Sequence record: PP180005
DNA length: 53,846 bases
Direction: 5' to 3' (one strand)
DNA from: Escherichia phage mEp554
The notes under the pieces are model-generated. The model saw only the letters and a list, made by a program, of their open reading frames with translations. It was not told the origin of the DNA and made no database searches. The position numbers were made by a program, and so were the translations under genes. Below are positions 3,266-37,998 of the stretch, in pieces; positions within the stretch are counted from its first letter, which is position 1; every line of letters starts with the position of its first letter.

Positions 3266-3819
3266 AATTCCAACCCCGTTTCGCCGTTAAGTTTTTCGAT
3301 CTCAAATATTGGTTTATCCGGTAGCAGGCCGTTATTTTTCCGGTATTCGTTCAGGCGTCTGTCAAAGTCAAAAGCCAAATCATTAGCGTGACCGAAGCGC
3401 CCAGGTTTAAACAATGAGTAAAAATTTACCCCGTGTCGGTTAGGGTCAACGCAAAGCGTTTCATCAATAACCATTAAACGCAGAGTACGAGATAGATAAT
3501 TCCACGGAATACCCGTTTCCGCGCTAATGTCGCGCATACGCTTTTTAACGCTGTAGTCACCAAATAACGCAGCGACGCGCTCGCGACGTTCAGCATATAA
3601 CTGTTTAATACGATAACCAAGCAGTCGGCGGCGGCGTCCAAAACATGTATACACGCGCTCGACGATGCCGTTTTTTATTAAGTGTTTAATTGTCTCAGGC
3701 ATGATTCCATCCTTATCATACCCGACCAATAATCCTGTTTTCTGGCGTAACTGGTGCATTGTTGCGATGCCATCAAGTTCAAGGATATTGATAATTTTTG
3801 TTTCAATTTCAGCGCTCAT
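3262..3819 (-). CDS. Hypothetical protein (185 aa)
   Basis: ORF with GAGG SD; downstream of helicase in the same operon. Confidence 0.55.
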   Translation of the reverse strand: MSAEIETKIINILELDGIATMHQLRQKTGLLVGYDKDGIMPETIKHLIKNGIVERVYTCFGRRRRLLGYRIKQLYAERRERVAALFGDYSVKKRMRDISAETGIPWNYLSRTLRLMVIDETLCVDPNRHGVNFYSLFKPGRFGHANDLAFDFDRRLNEYRKNNGLLPDKPIFEIEKLNGETGLEL

Positions 3820-7357: not shown

Positions 7358-7459
7358 TTATGGATTGACTAGAAGGAACAAACCGCCGAACAAAGCGACG
7401 TTAACAGCGATTGCAGCAGCGATGGCAAAAGCCAGGGCGAAAACGTGTTTACCGTCCAT
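7358..7459 (-). CDS. Single-helix hydrophobic mini-protein (33 aa)
   Basis: MDGKHVFALAFAIAAAIAVNVALFGGLFLLVNP; GAGAGGA SD. Confidence 0.35.
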   Translation of the reverse strand: MDGKHVFALAFAIAAAIAVNVALFGGLFLLVNP

Positions 7460-12415: not shown

Positions 12416-12640
12416 ATGATCGAAGAAAAAGAAATTGATAAAGAAACGCCTGATGGTCGTGATGAGCTTATTTATTTTGATGGCGGCATGTATGAGATCG
12501 ATACGTCGGCTGGCTGGCATGATAAATGGCCTCTGCCTACTCGCAAGGAATTGAGCGATCGTAAATCATTCGGCGAAGATGCAGAACGCCTTGCTAATAA
12601 CAAGTGGCTTAACAAGTTTATTGCGGAGGGCGACAAATGA
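12416..12640 (+). CDS. Hypothetical protein
   Basis: ORF in operon; no recognisable motif. Confidence 0.5.
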   Translation: MIEEKEIDKETPDGRDELIYFDGGMYEIDTSAGWHDKWPLPTRKELSDRKSFGEDAERLANNKWLNKFIAEGDK

Positions 12641-12750
12641 ATTTTGCAAAAATTGCCGCACTGATTGCGGCCCTGTCTATCGCCGTGGTGTATCTGAGCG
12701 TATCTCTTTGTATCACGGTAGCGATCATTAAACTTATTACTAACATGTGA
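12637..12750 (+). CDS. Single-helix hydrophobic mini-protein (37 aa)
   Basis: MNFAKIAALIAALSIAVVYLSVSLCITVAIIKLITNM; ATGA overlap with upstream stop. Confidence 0.4.
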   Translation: MNFAKIAALIAALSIAVVYLSVSLCITVAIIKLITNM

Positions 12751-12758
12751 GGCCAATC

Positions 12759-12878
12759 ATGAAAGTCGGTAAGGATATTGTGACAGTCGCGTTTTGCATT
12801 ATTTGTTTCCTGTTTGTGGTTGTGTTTTGTGGCGCATTTGCCGCGCTGGTTAGCCTTATTTTCAGGGGATTGTTGTGA
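12759..12878 (+). CDS. Single-helix hydrophobic mini-protein (39 aa)
   Basis: MKVGKDIVTVAFCIICFLFVVVFCGAFAALVSLIFRGLL; stop overlaps next start (TGATG). Confidence 0.4.
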   Translation: MKVGKDIVTVAFCIICFLFVVVFCGAFAALVSLIFRGLL

Positions 12879-14608: not shown

Positions 14609-14701
14609 ATGGACGACACATTGTTTTATATGTGCTGTTGCTGGGGTTTTATTGCCTTATGCCTGTTTATCAGGTGGTTTATTGAATACCATATGAGGTG
14701 A
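14609..14701 (+). CDS. Hydrophobic mini-protein (30 aa)
   Basis: MDDTLFYMCCCWGFIALCLFIRWFIEYHMR; GAGG SD. Confidence 0.35.
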   Translation: MDDTLFYMCCCWGFIALCLFIRWFIEYHMR

Positions 14702-24576: not shown

Positions 24577-24598
24577 CCCGGCCCCGTGCCGGGTTTTT
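24577..24598 (+). terminator. Rho-independent terminator about 30 nt downstream of the candidate late promoter (tR'-like)
   Basis: CCCGGC-CCCGT-GCCGGG hairpin followed by TTTTT. Confidence 0.6.
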
Positions 24599-24618
24599 GC
24601 TTTGTTGGAGGTAAATCT

Positions 24619-24819
24619 ATGTTCGACAGAATACGGGAGGCGTGTGCGTATGTGACTGGTGCAGTAACCGCTTTTTTCGGTGCTATAACCATCAATGACG
24701 TCGCTGTTTTCGTTGGTATCTTATCAACCATAGGCACATTTGCCGTTAACTATTACTTTAAATCACAGGAGAACAAGCGAGCGCAAGAGGAACACGACGC
24801 GCGAATGGGGAATAAGTAA
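24619..24819 (+). CDS. Holin (pinholin-like, two TM segments)
   Basis: 67 aa; GGAGG SD; resembles phage 21 S-type pinholin architecture; precedes SAR endolysin. Confidence 0.7.
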   Translation: MFDRIREACAYVTGAVTAFFGAITINDVAVFVGILSTIGTFAVNYYFKSQENKRAQEEHDARMGNK

Positions 24820-25311
24820 ATGATTAGCCAATCGCTGAAAAACAAGATTGTTGCTGCGGCGGCTGGTGGTGCAATCGCTATTGCGGCGGTGATGATTAAG
24901 CCATTAGAGGGCGTGGAATACGATCCATATCGTGATGTTGTTGGCGTATGGACTGTTTGCTACGGTAACACCGGAAAAGACATCATGCTTGGGAAGACTT
25001 ACACGCAATCAGAATGCGATGCTTTGCTGAACAAAGATCTACACAAAACCGCAAAAGCGATTGACCCATATATCAAAGTCGAAATATCAGATTTTACCCG
25101 CGCTGCACTTTATTCCTTCGCCTATAACGTAGGCGCAACCAACTTCAAAACATCAACCTTATTAAAGCTACTCAATGACGGCAAGAAATCGGAAGCGTGC
25201 GCACAGCTTAAACGCTGGGTATACGCTGGCGGTAGGAAGTGGCAAGGCCTGGTAAACCGCCGCGATGTTGAATATGCCGTTTGCGAATGGGGGGAAACGT
25301 GGACAAGGTGA
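24820..25311 (+). CDS. SAR endolysin (GH24 lysozyme, phage 21 R-like)
   Basis: N-terminal weakly hydrophobic [21 protein letters not shown] segment; [34 protein letters not shown] lysozyme core. Confidence 0.85.
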
Positions 25312-26048: not shown

Positions 26049-26606
26049 ATGGCTAAGGCTAAAGGCATTAAGTTGCCTCAATTCAAAGTCCCGCTCTTTG
26101 AGCATACAACTGTTTTCTTTTGCCCGACCCGCGAGATGTTCTATGAGTTTTGCGAAAAGGCAGGGATCCCAATCGAACCTGATTTCGAACTGGCAGGAGG
26201 ATTAACGCTTACTTGCACTGGTGAGAAAGGCGGTAACTTCTACGTGATCGCAGTATTCGACAATGAGTTAGGAACGCTGGTACATGAAGCGGCCCATACT
26301 ACATTTCACGTTTTAAGTGATGTAGGCGTCGTGGCGACCACTGATCCCAGCCATCCGGCAAACGAGACTTATGCTTACATGGTAGGCCGTATCTTTGATG
26401 CTTTCTTCCCCATCCTGGCAGAATCAAATGAAGCACAGGTGGCAGCAATGCAGGCAGAAGAAATAACCGAACGTCTTAGCGCACAAGAGGCAAGGGATAT
26501 TGCTAATGAGGCAAAAGACAAGCAAAAGCCAGCTAAGAAAGGCAAACGTAAGCCTAAAGCAAAAGAGGCGCTTGTGCCGCGTGTTATGAGCTTTAAACGG
26601 GGGTGA
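26049..26606 (+). CDS. Hypothetical protein with HExxH motif (possible zinc metallopeptidase) and lysine-rich C-terminus
   Basis: LVHEAAHTTFHV; C-terminal KDKQKPAKKGKRKPKAK. Confidence 0.55.
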   Translation: MAKAKGIKLPQFKVPLFEHTTVFFCPTREMFYEFCEKAGIPIEPDFELAGGLTLTCTGEKGGNFYVIAVFDNELGTLVHEAAHTTFHVLSDVGVVATTDPSHPANETYAYMVGRIFDAFFPILAESNEAQVAAMQAEEITERLSAQEARDIANEAKDKQKPAKKGKRKPKAKEALVPRVMSFKRG

Positions 26607-26608
26607 TT

Positions 26609-26704
26609 ATGGGTATCCTTCTGGTATGTGTATTTATTGCTTTAGTTGCGATGGAGGTATTGCTCCCCATTTGGGCGGCGACCTGGATGATGCAAGATGA
26701 TTGA
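26609..26704 (+). CDS. Mini-gene 1 of array: hydrophobic peptide (31 aa)
   Basis: MGILLVCVFIALVAMEVLLPIWAATWMMQDD; GGGGGTGA SD. Confidence 0.4.
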   Translation: MGILLVCVFIALVAMEVLLPIWAATWMMQDD

Positions 26705-26771
26705 CCCGCTCATTATCCTTTCTGCCTGCGTCGCTGTATGGCTGGCGATCATGATATTCATTGAAAGCTAA
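26697..26771 (+). CDS. Mini-gene 2 of array (24 aa)
   Basis: MIDPLIILSACVAVWLAIMIFIES; start overlaps mini-gene 1 stop. Confidence 0.35.
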   Translation: MIDPLIILSACVAVWLAIMIFIES

Positions 26772-26781
26772 AGGCGTTCAC

Positions 26782-26856
26782 ATGAATATTTACGATCTAA
26801 TCTGGTGGTTGTTGGTCGCCGTCATTATCTATTTCTGGTGGAAGAATGTTGTATAG
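26782..26856 (+). CDS. Mini-gene 3 of array (24 aa)
   Basis: MNIYDLIWWLLVAVIIYFWWKNVV; AAAGG SD. Confidence 0.4.
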   Translation: MNIYDLIWWLLVAVIIYFWWKNVV

Positions 26857-26864
26857 GTGACGGC

Positions 26865-26963
26865 ATGGATATATTCGAATTACTGGCGATTATGTTCGGA
26901 ATGATGTTAAGCATTGTCGCCATAATTATCATCATCGGCCTTGTTATGGGTAGCATCAAATGA
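26865..26963 (+). CDS. Mini-gene 4 of array (32 aa)
   Basis: MDIFELLAIMFGMMLSIVAIIIIIGLVMGSIK; AGGTGA SD. Confidence 0.45.
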   Translation: MDIFELLAIMFGMMLSIVAIIIIIGLVMGSIK

Positions 26964-27040
26964 ACGCATACGAAATGCTATTGCTGGTGGCTGTTATTAC
27001 AGTTATCGCCGTAGATTTTTATCGAGGGTTGAAAAGATGA
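26960..27040 (+). CDS. Mini-gene 5 of array (26 aa)
   Basis: MNAYEMLLLVAVITVIAVDFYRGLKR; ATGA overlap. Confidence 0.4.
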   Translation: MNAYEMLLLVAVITVIAVDFYRGLKR

Positions 27041-27108
27041 GAGAAGCAGACTTCTTTTGCATGATTATAGTGATCGTCATCGTTGCCGTGCTTTTAAGCG
27101 TTAACTGA
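27037..27108 (+). CDS. Mini-gene 6 of array (23 aa)
   Basis: MREADFFCMIIVIVIVAVLLSVN; GAGGG SD; ATGA overlap. Confidence 0.4.
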   Translation: MREADFFCMIIVIVIVAVLLSVN

Positions 27109-27125
27109 ATCGCAGGAGGTTAAAA

Positions 27126-27194
27126 ATGAAATTGCTTGATTTCTTTTTCCTGATTGTTGCGATTGTTCTTACCATGACCGCGCTGACTCAATAG
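27126..27194 (+). CDS. Mini-gene 7 of array (22 aa)
   Basis: MKLLDFFFLIVAIVLTMTALTQ; AGGAGG SD 7 nt upstream. Confidence 0.45.
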   Translation: MKLLDFFFLIVAIVLTMTALTQ

Positions 27195-27202
27195 GTGAAT
27201 AT

Positions 27203-27277
27203 ATGGAAACTATCGAAGCAGTATTATTCGTGTTCATCGCTGCGGTTGTTATTGTTGGGTTTATTATCAATGTCTGA
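27203..27277 (+). CDS. Mini-gene 8 of array (24 aa)
   Basis: METIEAVLFVFIAAVVIVGFIINV; AGGTGA SD. Confidence 0.45.
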   Translation: METIEAVLFVFIAAVVIVGFIINV

Positions 27278-27338
27278 CGTCGATTTCTTAATCATAGCTA
27301 TAAGTTCGCTGTTAGTCGTTATCGTTTTCTTCGCATAA
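27270..27338 (+). CDS. Mini-gene 9 of array (22 aa)
   Basis: MSDVDFLIIAISSLLVVIVFFA; start overlaps mini-gene 8 end. Confidence 0.35.
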   Translation: MSDVDFLIIAISSLLVVIVFFA

Positions 27339-27348
27339 AGGGTAAGCA

Positions 27349-27432
27349 ATGAAAGAGCTATTCGACTGGTTGGAAGTATTAACATACTGCGCAAGTTTTG
27401 TGGCTTGCGTATATATCATCAACAAATATTAA
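27349..27432 (+). CDS. Mini-gene 10 of array (27 aa)
   Basis: MKELFDWLEVLTYCASFVACVYIINKY; AAGGG SD. Confidence 0.4.
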   Translation: MKELFDWLEVLTYCASFVACVYIINKY

Positions 27433-27442
27433 GAGGTGAAAT

Positions 27443-27928
27443 ATGGCCCGCACGAAAAAGGCAAAGGCTGAAGACAAAAAGCCAGCAGCCAAAAAGACGG
27501 GCCGTCCACATGGCTATTCAGAAGAAAAGGCATTGGAGATCTGCGAGCTTGTGTCGGACGGCGAAAGTATTAACAAGATTTCGAAGATGCCTGGTATGCC
27601 TGCACGTTCAACAATCCTCAAGTGGTTCAGAGATGTGCCGGAGTTTTCGGACATGTATATGCGCGCGAAGGAGATCGGATTCGAGGTGTTAGCTGATGAG
27701 ATCATCGACCTTGCTGACGCGCCAGAGAACATCAAAAAGGAAGAACTGAACAGACACCATTTGATGATTGAAACTCGTAAATGGCTATTAGCAAAACTGC
27801 AACCGCGTAAGTATGGCGAGCGCGTCACACAGGAGATCGTCGGCAACAAGGAAGAGGCGCCCGTCCAGGTGGAAGTCACGAAAGAAGAGATCGCCCGCAT
27901 CGTCCAGGAAGTAGAAGACGAGGTGTGA
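27443..27928 (+). CDS. Terminase small subunit
   Basis: 161 aa; basic N-terminus, HTH-like segment; AGAGGTGA SD; overlaps terL start. Confidence 0.75.
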   Translation: MARTKKAKAEDKKPAAKKTGRPHGYSEEKALEICELVSDGESINKISKMPGMPARSTILKWFRDVPEFSDMYMRAKEIGFEVLADEIIDLADAPENIKKEELNRHHLMIETRKWLLAKLQPRKYGERVTQEIVGNKEEAPVQVEVTKEEIARIVQEVEDEV

Positions 27929-29409: not shown

Positions 29410-29487
29410 AATCTGCCTCACAACTACCCACAAGTTTTTCTATTTTTCGCGTAGCAACGCGTAAACATGTATTCAGGAGTAAACATT

Positions 29488-30858
29488 ATGCCATCCAATT
29501 TAGAATTGGCGGTTAATGCTGCCTTGTCTCAACGCCAGGCGGCCTACGCCCGCTATGCCGCAGCACACCCATTCACTATGGGTATAGATGCCAAACGGGA
29601 TGCAGCGTGGAGTGAATACGGATTCAAAGAAGAAATAACCTATGACGATCTATACAAGCTGTATCGTCGCGGTGGTATCGCTCATGGTGCTGTAGAGAAG
29701 ATTGTTACTACTTGCTGGCGCACTATGCCAACGATGATCGAGGGAACCGAAGACGAGAAAGCCGAAAAGGAAACACCCTGGGAAAGAGAAATCAAGAAAC
29801 AATTCGACAACAGATTTTGGCGCACCATTGCCGAATGTGACCGCCGCCGCCTCATCGGTCGTTATGCTGGCCTGTTGATTCATGTCAGAGATAACCAGCC
29901 GTGGGATAAGCCAGTAACAAAAGGCGTAGGCATTGCCAAATTTACCCCGGTATGGGCTGGTGCTCTGACGCCGAAGGACTTCGAAGAAAACCCGGACAAT
30001 GAAAACTATGGCCTGCCGACGTGGTGGGAGTACAAGGAACGCATTAACAGTAAGACCATAGCAAGAAGGATCCACCCTGACCGCATATTCATCTTCGGTG
30101 ACTATTCTGATGATGCAATAGCCTTCCTTGAGCCGTCATATAACGCCTTTGTCTCGCTTGAGAAGGTGGAAGGGGGTAGCGGTGAATCATTCCTGAAAAA
30201 CGCTGCCCGCCAGTTAGCTATCTCGTTCGACAAGGATATTGACTTCCGGTCACTGGCAGCCACATACGGATGCGACGTCACAGAGCTTCGAGAAAAATTC
30301 AACGAGGCAGCGGATGAAATGAATAAGGGTAACGACGTGATGATGGCATTACAAGGGGCCACAGTTAGCCCGCTGGTGACTGCCGTATCTGACCCGTCAG
30401 CAACCTATGATGTCAACCTGCAAACCGCCGCCGCTGGTATTGATATTCCGACTCGCATCCTGGTTGGGAACCAGCAAGGCGAACGCGCATCAACCGAAGA
30501 TCTCCGCTACTTCAACAGCCGCTGTATGACTCGCAGGGAGGAAATCGGCGGTGAACTTGAGGAACTATTCCGCAAGATGGCAGATCTTCGCCTTATCAGC
30601 ATACCAGTTGACGTATCAGTTATATGGGACGACCTGAACGCCATGACTAAAGCCGAACTACTGGAAGCGGCATACAAAATGGCGCAAATCAATCAGGCTT
30701 GTTTGGCTACTGGTGAAGAAATATTTAGCGGTGACGAGATTCGCGAGGCTGCCGGATACGATGGCCCCGCTAGTGTAGTAGAAACGGAAGAGGGTGACGA
30801 TGATGAAGGTGAAGAAGATAATCAGGCGAATACCTCCAGCCGCGATAATGCCATCTAA
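29488..30858 (+). CDS. Portal protein
   Basis: Size and position after terL; AGGAG SD before MPSNLELAV; acidic C-terminus. Confidence 0.7.
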   Translation: MPSNLELAVNAALSQRQAAYARYAAAHPFTMGIDAKRDAAWSEYGFKEEITYDDLYKLYRRGGIAHGAVEKIVTTCWRTMPTMIEGTEDEKAEKETPWEREIKKQFDNRFWRTIAECDRRRLIGRYAGLLIHVRDNQPWDKPVTKGVGIAKFTPVWAGALTPKDFEENPDNENYGLPTWWEYKERINSKTIARRIHPDRIFIFGDYSDDAIAFLEPSYNAFVSLEKVEGGSGESFLKNAARQLAISFDKDIDFRSLAATYGCDVTELREKFNEAADEMNKGNDVMMALQGATVSPLVTAVSDPSATYDVNLQTAAAGIDIPTRILVGNQQGERASTEDLRYFNSRCMTRREEIGGELEELFRKMADLRLISIPVDVSVIWDDLNAMTKAELLEAAYKMAQINQACLATGEEIFSGDEIREAAGYDGPASVVETEEGDDDEGEEDNQANTSSRDNAI

Positions 30859-37562: not shown

Positions 37563-37578
37563 CCGGGCCTTTATCTTT
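37551..37578. terminator. Bidirectional rho-independent terminator
   Basis: GCCCGG-AATTAA-CCGGGC hairpin flanked by A5 upstream and CTTTATCTTT downstream; ends both the chaperone gene (+) and the convergent minus-strand moron. Confidence 0.65.
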
Positions 37579-37891
37579 ACTTGTATGCTGCGAATCGGCA
37601 TCTTGCTTCATCCAGGTCATGAACATCGTACACGTTATCGTAAATGTAAGTTGCTACCTGTGCTTTCTGTACGTCAGTTGCGTTCGGGAACTCCATGCTT
37701 ACGAAAGTCACTGCATCAACGTAGTGTTTGAACATCTTTTTGTTAACGCACAGTGCGTAAATCAATACGGCAGGCCAGCAAATCAGCGCGCCAAAGAATG
37801 CCATGAGCATATTCAGATGTTTTTTCTGAGCTACAACCATAGTTGCGACGAATCCGATGAAGCAAATTACCAGTTCCATGATGCACCCCAT
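37577..37891 (-). CDS. Membrane protein (two TM segments), opposite-strand moron
   Basis: MELVICFIGFVATMVVAQ...LMAFFGALICWPAVLIYALCV then soluble C-terminal domain. Confidence 0.55.
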   Translation of the reverse strand: MGCIMELVICFIGFVATMVVAQKKHLNMLMAFFGALICWPAVLIYALCVNKKMFKHYVDAVTFVSMEFPNATDVQKAQVATYIYDNVYDVHDLDEARCRFAAYK

Positions 37892-37998
37892 TAATTACGT
37901 TTATCTTCGGTTGTCATTGCCAGCACTAGCACAGCCATCACATTAAATGCTAACCATGCTGTAATATATACATCTATAACCGTTTTGATTGTGTCCAT
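37891..37998 (-). CDS. Single-helix hydrophobic mini-protein (35 aa), moron
   Basis: MDTIKTVIDVYITAWLAFNVMAVLVLAMTTEDKRN; stop overlaps next start. Confidence 0.4.
   Translation of the reverse strand: MDTIKTVIDVYITAWLAFNVMAVLVLAMTTEDKRN

Follow-up and report, generated by a model that had tools for sequence, protein, structure and literature searches.

The question raised by this locus is what occupies the DNA directly upstream of the small terminase subunit gene (terS) in Escherichia phage mEp554 (sequence record PP180005; its 53,846 nucleotides are called the window here). Between positions 26609 and 27432 no open reading frame (ORF) of 60 or more amino acids (aa) is present, as the initial annotation had stated and the ORF listing confirms. 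That annotation regarded the interval as a tandem array of ten mini-genes for small hydrophobic peptides. The ten ORFs are real protein-coding genes, and not chance ORFs or a packaging (pac) site, because they exceed the number obtained by shuffling, their frames are intact in relatives, and the substitutions in them are biased towards synonymous ones. mEp554 belongs to the mEpimmI/mEp021 group of Nus-dependent, non-lambdoid temperate coliphages. It is a siphovirus (PMC11893012); the words 'transmembrane', 'terminase' and 'small ORF' are absent from the one paper on the group, and the region is not discussed there.

Layout of the array and hydrophobicity of its products

The interval 26609–27432 (+ strand) consists of ten ATG-initiated ORFs of 22–32 aa placed end to end. 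They account for 92% of the bases between the stop of the preceding gene, which encodes a 185-aa protein (26606), and the terS start (27443). When the interval was shuffled 2000 times with its dinucleotide composition, and hence its T-richness, preserved, mini-gene ORFs numbered 1.44 per shuffle on average and 5 at most, compared with 10 in the real sequence. The coverage by such ORFs was 0.16 on average and 0.60 at most. On the − strand of 26607–27442 no hydrophobic ORF was found. The coordinates and the shuffle test agree with the tiling by short hydrophobic ORFs of near-zero spacing that had been proposed. The position needs a correction. The array adjoins the terminase as described, but it does not adjoin the lysis cassette: the 185-aa gene (26049–26606, +) intervenes.

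The distances between each start and the preceding stop, beginning with the 185-aa gene, are +2, −8, +10, +8, −4, −4, +17, +8, −8 and +10 nt, and mini-gene 10 is followed by terS at +10 nt. The mean predicted pairing of the ten starts with the anti-Shine–Dalgarno (SD) sequence is −5.3 kcal/mol, compared with −1.95 kcal/mol at random positions (Mann–Whitney p = 1.6e-4), and is similar to that of the long ORFs of mEp554 (−5.5 kcal/mol). The spacing and the SD strength suggest that the mini-genes are translationally coupled.

All ten peptides are hydrophobic, with grand averages of hydropathy (GRAVY) of 0.78–2.32. In the array ORFs, T is present at 57% of the second codon positions, which is the signature of membrane-helix coding. 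The Kyte–Doolittle score over 19 residues (KD19) is 1.8–3.05 in nine of the ten peptides, above the threshold of 1.6. Thus the predicted transmembrane (TM) helix is found in nine peptides, and peptide 10 is marginal. The uncharged core of peptide 5 has only 13 residues. The N-terminal start pattern containing Asp or Glu, which had been described as shared by every product, is missing from peptide 1. Among the 17 peptide families defined in relatives (see below), the N-terminal flank is net negative in 12 and Lys or Arg is present on the C-terminal flank in seven; six of the ten mEp554 peptides have no charged C-terminal residue past the hydrophobic run. The acidic N-termini and basic C-termini would favour an N-out/C-in orientation. 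This orientation is likened to that of other small phage membrane proteins, with the Pf3 and M13 coat proteins as precedent.

Conservation of the frames and order of the cassettes

Homologous intervals were collected from 6 phage records, 9 complete Escherichia coli genomes and 47 IMG/VR contigs; the comparison covered 63 loci. To avoid circularity, representatives of the 17 families were used to find the cassettes by nucleotide homology, and only afterwards was each copy checked for its start codon and an open frame of the expected length. The frame is intact in 550 of the 564 cassette copies (97.5%), and gaps are present in only two alignments. The 14 non-intact copies include six longer C-terminal variants, one in-frame fusion (60 aa) and one copy that reads on into a longer ORF. 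True lesions number about 7 in 564: the start is ACG in four copies and ATA in one, and the other two have a frameshift and a premature stop, respectively. The variable sites at codon positions 1, 2 and 3 number 182, 124 and 351, respectively (16 families, 63 loci). The pooled ratio of nonsynonymous to synonymous polymorphism (pN/pS) is 0.27 in frame; when the same alignments are read out of frame, it is 0.94 and 1.35. The ratio is 0.15–0.38 across the 15 families with at least three haplotypes, and the first 16 loci gave a similar picture. In family P, a small set of five haplotypes, it is 0.64. For comparison, terS of the same loci gives 0.14. Between mEp554 and its closest relative, mEp010, the sole indel and 5 of the 11 differences are located within the intergenic bases, which make up about 8%. 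The initial annotation had named frame-disrupting indels without conservation of the peptides as evidence against its reading; the relatives, once examined, did not show this pattern. Its central claim, that these are tandem, closely spaced and real mini-genes, is upheld by the frames kept in 62 relatives.

The genes are modular. The 185-aa gene and terS flank the gap in all 63 loci. The length of the gap varies from 319 to 1155 bp, and mini-ORFs of this kind, 3–13 per locus and from at least 17 families, fill it in each locus. The 54 distinct arrays correspond to 39 architectures, each with 3–12 of the 17 census families (the maximum of 13 genes includes rarer families), and the gene order is violated in none of the 54. 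The array of mEp021 has 5 genes, and 13 are present in the MagusPhagus type. These architectures provide dozens of natural 'deletion mutants'. Families B (96% of the arrays), A2 (94%) and C (93%) are near-universal, and the other families are found in 4–85%. E and H nearly always co-occur (phi 0.85). The last slot is filled in every array by D or by its mutually exclusive allele P.

The ten mini-genes of mEp554, all on the + strand, are as follows. Mini-gene 1 (family T1, 26609–26704) encodes the 31-aa peptide MGILLVCVFIALVAMEVLLPIWAATWMMQDD; it starts 2 nt past the stop of the 185-aa gene, and its SD pairing is −9.9 kcal/mol. Family T1 is limited to mEp554 and mEp010, where it is annotated as a hypothetical protein (WWQ70242.1/WWQ70683.1), and its two haplotypes have a single synonymous difference. 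Mini-gene 2 (family A2, 26697–26771; 24 aa, MIDPLIILSACVAVWLAIMIFIES) overlaps gene 1 by 8 nt, with 60 of 60 family copies intact and a pN/pS of 0.32. Mini-gene 3 (family G, 26782–26856; 24 aa, MNIYDLIWWLLVAVIIYFWWKNVV) belongs to a family present in 70% of the arrays (41 of 43 copies intact, pN/pS 0.30). Mini-gene 4 (family I, 26865–26963; 32 aa, MDIFELLAIMFGMMLSIVAIIIIIGLVMGSIK) is annotated as mEp554_75; 29 of 31 copies are intact, and pN/pS is 0.20. An ATGA overlap links it to mini-gene 5 (family B, 26960–27040; 26 aa, MNAYEMLLLVAVITVIAVDFYRGLKR; 61 of 61 copies intact, pN/pS 0.26), and a second ATGA links mini-gene 5 to mini-gene 6 (family F1, 27037–27108; 23 aa, MREADFFCMIIVIVIVAVLLSVN; 22 of 22 intact, pN/pS 0.24, SD −6.4 kcal/mol). 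Mini-gene 7 (family C, 27126–27194; 22 aa, MKLLDFFFLIVAIVLTMTALTQ) has an AGGAGG SD of −11.0 kcal/mol, and its family shows a pN/pS of 0.15 with 59 of 59 copies intact. Mini-gene 8 (family E, 27203–27277; 24 aa, METIEAVLFVFIAAVVIVGFIINV; 40 of 40 intact, pN/pS 0.37) is overlapped over 8 nt by mini-gene 9 (family H, 27270–27338; 22 aa, MSDVDFLIIAISSLLVVIVFFA). In family H, 40 of 44 copies are intact, ACG replaces ATG in four relatives, and pN/pS is 0.29. Mini-gene 10 (family D, 27349–27432; 27 aa, MKELFDWLEVLTYCASFVACVYIINKY) encodes the least hydrophobic peptide (KD19 1.51), and its family has 56 of 56 copies intact and a pN/pS of 0.19. It is also the most conserved, and its TAA stop touches the SD of terS (27433–27445, TAAGAGGTGAAATATG).

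The loss of a cassette leaves the following gene with an SD at the junction, and an AGGTGA SD is retained in such deletions: ...TATAGGTGAAGC-ATG is found before B in mEp044, and ...TATAGGTGACGGC-ATG is found before I in mEp554. The left junction is constant, with the stop of the 185-aa gene and then TT-ATG, whichever cassette leads. Among the relatives, an in-frame fusion of A1 and A2 gives a 60-aa two-helix protein (locus L032), an in-frame A1::B chimera is present in locus L068 (chimera/frameshift region 3558–3653, 3650–3802), and a C cassette with a frameshift continues into E. The array is a source of new variants and also undergoes decay. Genes for HNH endonucleases are located near the region in relatives (L004 2070–2555; L067 1752–2273; L068 1194–1718 and 2413–2985). 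One HNH gene separates the 185-aa gene from the array in mEp013, and others lie within or after the lysis cassette. Homing endonucleases could be a driver of the local mosaicism.

The initial annotation had proposed one paralogous family expanded by tandem duplication. N-anchored comparisons against composition-preserving shuffles were performed for 136 family pairs, and 12 pairs reached z ≥ 3, where 0.34 were expected. Three subfamilies are clear: {F1, F2, C, H}, {M, B} and {D, P}, with the starts {MREADFF, MRESDFIY, MKWLDFF, MSDSDFL}, {MNAYEML, MNAYDLIW} and {MKELFDW, MKDLSS}, respectively. Judging from these similarities, tandem duplication is a reasonable origin for part of the array. A single paralogous family with one common ancestor for the whole array is unproven; only the subfamilies are supported.

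The genes are also lineage-restricted. The 2-kb region around the array of mEp554 is 94.6% identical to that of mEp010, and 88–92% identical to those of mEp013, mEp044, mEp021, mEp515 and MagusPhagus. Of 5426 complete E. coli genomes, 35 carry the array DNA, each in a single copy and each time in the same prophage type, and a blastn search for distant matches found no others. In most of these 35 prophages, the RefSeq/PGAP annotation is blank under the array. Eight of the ten peptides are absent from a collection of 15 billion proteins. A phmmer search with peptide 4 against 1.84 billion protein representatives found its own cluster only, and a degenerate DNA pattern for cassette B found contigs of the same phage group only among 2.9 million IMG/VR viral contigs. 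The profiles of Pfam-A, NCBIfam, PHROGs v4 and PADLOC-DB gave no match, or E ≥ 0.09, with the ten peptides and further family representatives. In a word-indexed protein search with the 17 representatives concatenated, none of 8000 candidates reached E ≤ 0.01, with the short, composition-filtered query as a probable weakness. HK620, which has an Sf6-type terS, and ST64T, in which the equivalent position is occupied by a homologue of the 185-aa gene, carry ordinary genes between Rz and terS and no mini-array. Most of the mini-genes are below gene-finder size, and the array shows how much present annotation may miss. Since gene callers drop ORFs of less than 30 codons, arrays of this kind may be widespread yet go unseen. 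The RefSeq annotation of E. coli O157:H7 LSU61 has a 129-aa antisense hypothetical protein (L013 1179–1568, −) that starts within the 3′ end of the 185-aa gene and extends over the beginning of the array; this call is probably a spurious mirror of the real mini-genes.

A homologue of family L (29 aa) was found outside the group, in about 90 FV3/rV5-like Vequintavirus genomes, with 76–79% aa identity and 80% DNA identity. It is located at 2001–2090 both in the FV3 locus (L064) and in the MiataMamis locus (L063, CDS0044), and is 29 aa, equal in length. The flanking 60 nt on each side are 27–30% identical, which is the random level. Because the homology ends at the start and stop codons, the 90-bp ORF was evidently transferred whole between the lineage of a temperate siphovirus and myoviruses that are virulent. 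Such an ORF-bounded transfer of 90 bp indicates that selection is able to act on mobile units this small. The Vequintavirus gene is unannotated in most records, and its neighbours are small genes with no assigned function, not lysis genes.

Proposed expression and membrane insertion, and candidate roles

In a consensus scan, promoter-like sites in the array are at the chance level (8, against 7.5 ± 2.6 expected). The scan of 26609–27432 detected no terminator-like site on the − strand, no excess of terminators and no Rfam match, though a non-canonical small RNA could escape such a scan. Since no promoter or terminator signals beyond chance are present inside the array, the simplest reading is that the array would be read through within the late transcript. 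Ribosomes would translate the mini-genes in series along this transcript, because each start is located −8 to +17 nt from the previous stop and has its own SD. Co-translational targeting by the signal recognition particle requires at least 45–50 aa, and peptides this short end translation within the ribosome tunnel and are targeted post-translationally (PMC12648545). As products of 22–32 residues are too short to exit the tunnel before termination, the single-helix products would be inserted into the inner membrane post-translationally, via YidC/SecYEG or spontaneously.

We consider it quite probable that the array is a late unit of ten separate, real genes for modular membrane micro-proteins that act individually, with a role in conflict as the favoured one. 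The array may be regarded as a sample from a collinear cassette library of at least 17 families in fixed order, of which each phage carries 3–13. Recombination at the junctions would lose, keep or fuse whole cassettes, and the SD and start of the next gene would be preserved. The cassettes are singly dispensable, yet each is under purifying selection; thus the peptides most likely act one by one, and not as a fixed complex. Content so variable would not be expected of a fixed complex or a core timing device, and it favours accessory factors on membrane targets. Each peptide would bind or perturb a membrane target during lytic growth. As the role in conflict, we tentatively put forward superinfection exclusion at the inner membrane, in which the DNA of competing phages would be kept out, or the neutralization of membrane-acting (abortive-infection) defence effectors. 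If this is true, the mini-genes represent a class of phage conflict genes far under the usual size cut-offs. A more elaborate form, which we regard as rather speculative, is that the locus represents a new kind of accessory module of phages, in which each micro-protein (less than 30 residues) of the recombining fixed-order library is a 'key' to a separate membrane target, for example the channels through which the DNA of rival phages enters or abortive-infection effectors embedded in the membrane, and the set of cassettes would decide the competitors or defences handled.

Several points weigh against these proposals. The pN/pS values were obtained from copies filtered for intact frames, with about 1% excluded. 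The signature of selection is purifying, and not diversifying as it often is in arms-race genes. The late timing of transcription and the translation are deduced from position and sequence alone. The place in the late operon beside the lysis genes fits a role in lysis at least as well. No target, and no homologue of known function, was obtained for the peptides from the profile libraries and protein searches. The crude insertion energy is positive for peptides 3, 5 and 10, so that their predicted insertion is marginal. Mini-gene 10 may have a different role and serve terS translation or be coupled to it, because its slot (D/P) is universal, none of the other nine peptides is less hydrophobic, and its stop codon directly adjoins the ribosome-binding site of terS.

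The modulation of lysis timing is our second choice, and we think it doubtful. Late inner-membrane peptides would lower the proton-motive force or contact the holin or the signal-anchor-release (SAR) endolysin, and the trigger would be shifted. On the + strand, the gene order is holin, endolysin, Rz, 185-aa gene, array, terS and terL, so that the array is in the same unit, about 840 nt downstream of holin–endolysin–Rz. The small holin (24586–24819, +) has two transmembrane domains (TMDs), and the holin of mEp021 is annotated as class II with 2 TMDs. The N-terminus of the endolysin (24820–25311, +) resembles a SAR anchor. These features suggest a pinholin/SAR-endolysin lysis system in mEp554. 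The release of a SAR endolysin depends on membrane energization, and membranes are depolarized by hydrophobic peptides as small as these, among them YohP, DinQ and the type I toxins. If the peptides do tune lysis, they would add a new layer of control to this system. However, the number of mini-genes varies from 3 to 13 among phages with near-identical lysis genes, the 185-aa gene and a 280-nt spacer lie between Rz and the array, and the Vequintavirus homologue of family L is not beside lysis genes. No holin or antiholin family matches the peptides (best E = 0.67). Such proteins typically have 60–150 aa, at least one TMD with a charged, hydrophilic C-terminal tail, and a gene adjacent to that of the endolysin, whereas the peptides have 22–32 aa, six of the ten are without a charged C-terminal residue, and Rz and the 185-aa gene separate them from the endolysin gene; moreover, mEp554 already has its two-TMD holin.

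We judge it improbable that the peptides are killers of the type I toxin kind, used for host shutdown or prophage stabilization under the control of an antisense RNA. In size and composition they are like IbsC, ShoB, TisB and DinQ, and they fall within the limits of type I toxins (less than about 60 aa, one TM helix), as they do within those of regulators of the AcrZ/MgtS/MgrB type (single TM, ≤50 aa). Some type I systems are prophage-borne (PMC12648545). Nevertheless, the array has no promoter of its own, no long 5′ untranslated region, and no antisense promoter–terminator above chance; genes chained with good SDs in an operon are the opposite of the typical tight translational repression; and the toxin families of Pfam and NCBIfam gave no match.

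An obligate hetero-oligomeric membrane complex of all the peptides, serving as a pore or scaffold in the manner of small photosystem subunits or of the pVII/pIX cap, is very unlikely in our estimation. Tandem closely spaced genes favour balanced co-production, E and H are nearly always together with an 8-nt overlap, and pVII and pIX of the Ff phages (33 and 32 residues) work as a pair (PMC10480500). Against this, the 54 arrays show 39 architectures of 3–12 families, and near-universality is limited to B, A2, C and the D/P slot. We give equally little credit to a translational relay, in which the act of translation itself would matter, with ribosomes kept on the mRNA, Rho-dependent polarity prevented and ribosomes delivered to terS. 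The near-zero spacing throughout, and the D/P cassette present in every array with its stop abutting the terS SD, are as such a relay would have them. A relay does not, however, require conserved and uniformly hydrophobic amino-acid sequences (pN/pS as given above for the 15 families and for P), and it leaves unexplained the ORF-bounded transfer of one cassette to an unrelated phage and the 17 distinct families. Finally, a non-coding spacer or pac region, whose T-rich composition yields hydrophobic ORFs by chance, can hardly be credited: its position directly upstream of an Sf6-type terS and the blank RefSeq/PGAP annotation in most prophages would suit it, but the shuffle test, the codon-position and pN/pS signal, the 97.5% of intact frames, a gap length varying between 319 and 1155 bp, and the failure to find repeat families of the terminase-binding type, or any direct or inverted repeat families in the array, contradict it.

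Neighbouring genes and comparison with known systems

The borders of the array are fixed in all relatives. The left border, the 185-aa gene (phrog_1365), is located downstream of Rz, which has an embedded Rz1-like frame. A stem-loop in the 280 nt between them is not unusually stable (z = −0.6), and no convincing terminator was found there. The zincin-like motif HEAAH...NETYAY is invariant in the 185-aa protein, whose tail is disordered and rich in Lys, and one homologue, which comes from a metagenome assembly, bears the database name 'PolyVal Metallopeptidase superfamily domain'. Its AlphaFold2 (AF2) model (mean predicted local distance difference test score, pLDDT, 77.8) gave no significant Foldseek match in the PDB. 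P22-like phages carry homologues at the same place from Rz to terS (ST64T orf-129), and in P22 and HK620 homologues are located near sieA. A functional tie between the 185-aa protein and the peptides is unsupported, as homologues occur without arrays (ST64T). The right border, terS (27443–27928, +), matches Sf6_terminase (PF20901) with E = 3.4e-36.

Further lone hydrophobic mini-ORFs of 30–39 aa are located in gaps elsewhere in the window, at 7358–7459 (−), 12637–12750 (+), 12759–12878 (+), 14609–14701 (+) and 37891–37998 (−). The last of these lies directly upstream of a 104-aa membrane ORF (37577–37891, −) in the tail-gene region. The suggestion of lone mini-genes made in the initial annotation is plausible: those at 12637–12878 and 14609–14701 fill + strand gaps and are conserved in relatives. 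In a relative, the homologue of the portal gene (29467–30858 in the window) is named 'anti-CBASS protein Acb1 family protein' by PGAP (L007 5094–5106), and the homologue in L067 matches Phage_portal_3 of Pfam. A misnomer or a fused function is possible.

Small hydrophobic proteins are a recognized, poorly understood class, and here up to 13 of them are adjacent in a tractable phage group of E. coli K-12. Like the array peptides, bacterial small membrane proteins and type I toxins have less than 50 aa and essentially one TM helix. They are inserted post-translationally, as the array peptides would be, and they bind to larger membrane proteins or disturb the membrane itself (PMC12648545). They are single and separately regulated, often by an antisense RNA, whereas the array genes are chained in a phage late operon as presence/absence cassettes. 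Examples are YohP (27 aa), DinQ (27 aa), TisB (29 aa), ShoB (26 aa) and IbsC (19 aa), and the regulators MgtS and AcrZ. The Vequintavirus 29-aa ORF is a true homologue of family L, but it stands alone, outside any array, in the genome of a virulent myovirus of 136 kb. The psm-alpha operon of Staphylococcus aureus has four tandem genes for peptides of about 21 aa. It resembles the array in its tandem mini-genes and in helical peptides of about 20–26 aa acting on membranes; the psm-alpha peptides, however, are amphipathic, exported by an ATP-binding cassette (ABC) transporter and chromosomal, whereas those of the array are uniformly hydrophobic, phage-borne and variable in number.

The Entero67K survey of a 'cryptic microproteome' in Enterobacteriaceae likewise found unannotated, mostly hydrophobic ORFs of 15–70 codons by purifying selection (PMC11188072). 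The ORFs of that survey are isolated and intergenic, its 'array' means head-to-tail runs of small ORFs (smORFs) and the genes next to them, the words 'prophage', 'tandem' and 'terminase' are absent from its text, and a tandem mini-gene array is not described in it (PMC11188072). A fixed-order, presence/absence-polymorphic array of up to 13 membrane genes of less than 50 codons in a tailed phage appears to be undescribed. By analogy, the closest functional counterparts of the array peptides would be pVII and pIX of the Ff phages (M13/f1/fd), although no Pfam match supports a similarity in sequence. The pVII and pIX genes overlap. Like the array products, pVII (33 aa) and pIX (32 aa) are single helices without a signal peptide in the inner membrane, encoded by adjacent genes (PMC10480500; in part PMC5155289). 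They differ in being a fixed pair that caps the virion of a secreted filamentous phage, whereas mEp554 is a tailed siphovirus, which has no membrane stage, of a group whose arrays hold 3–13 genes.

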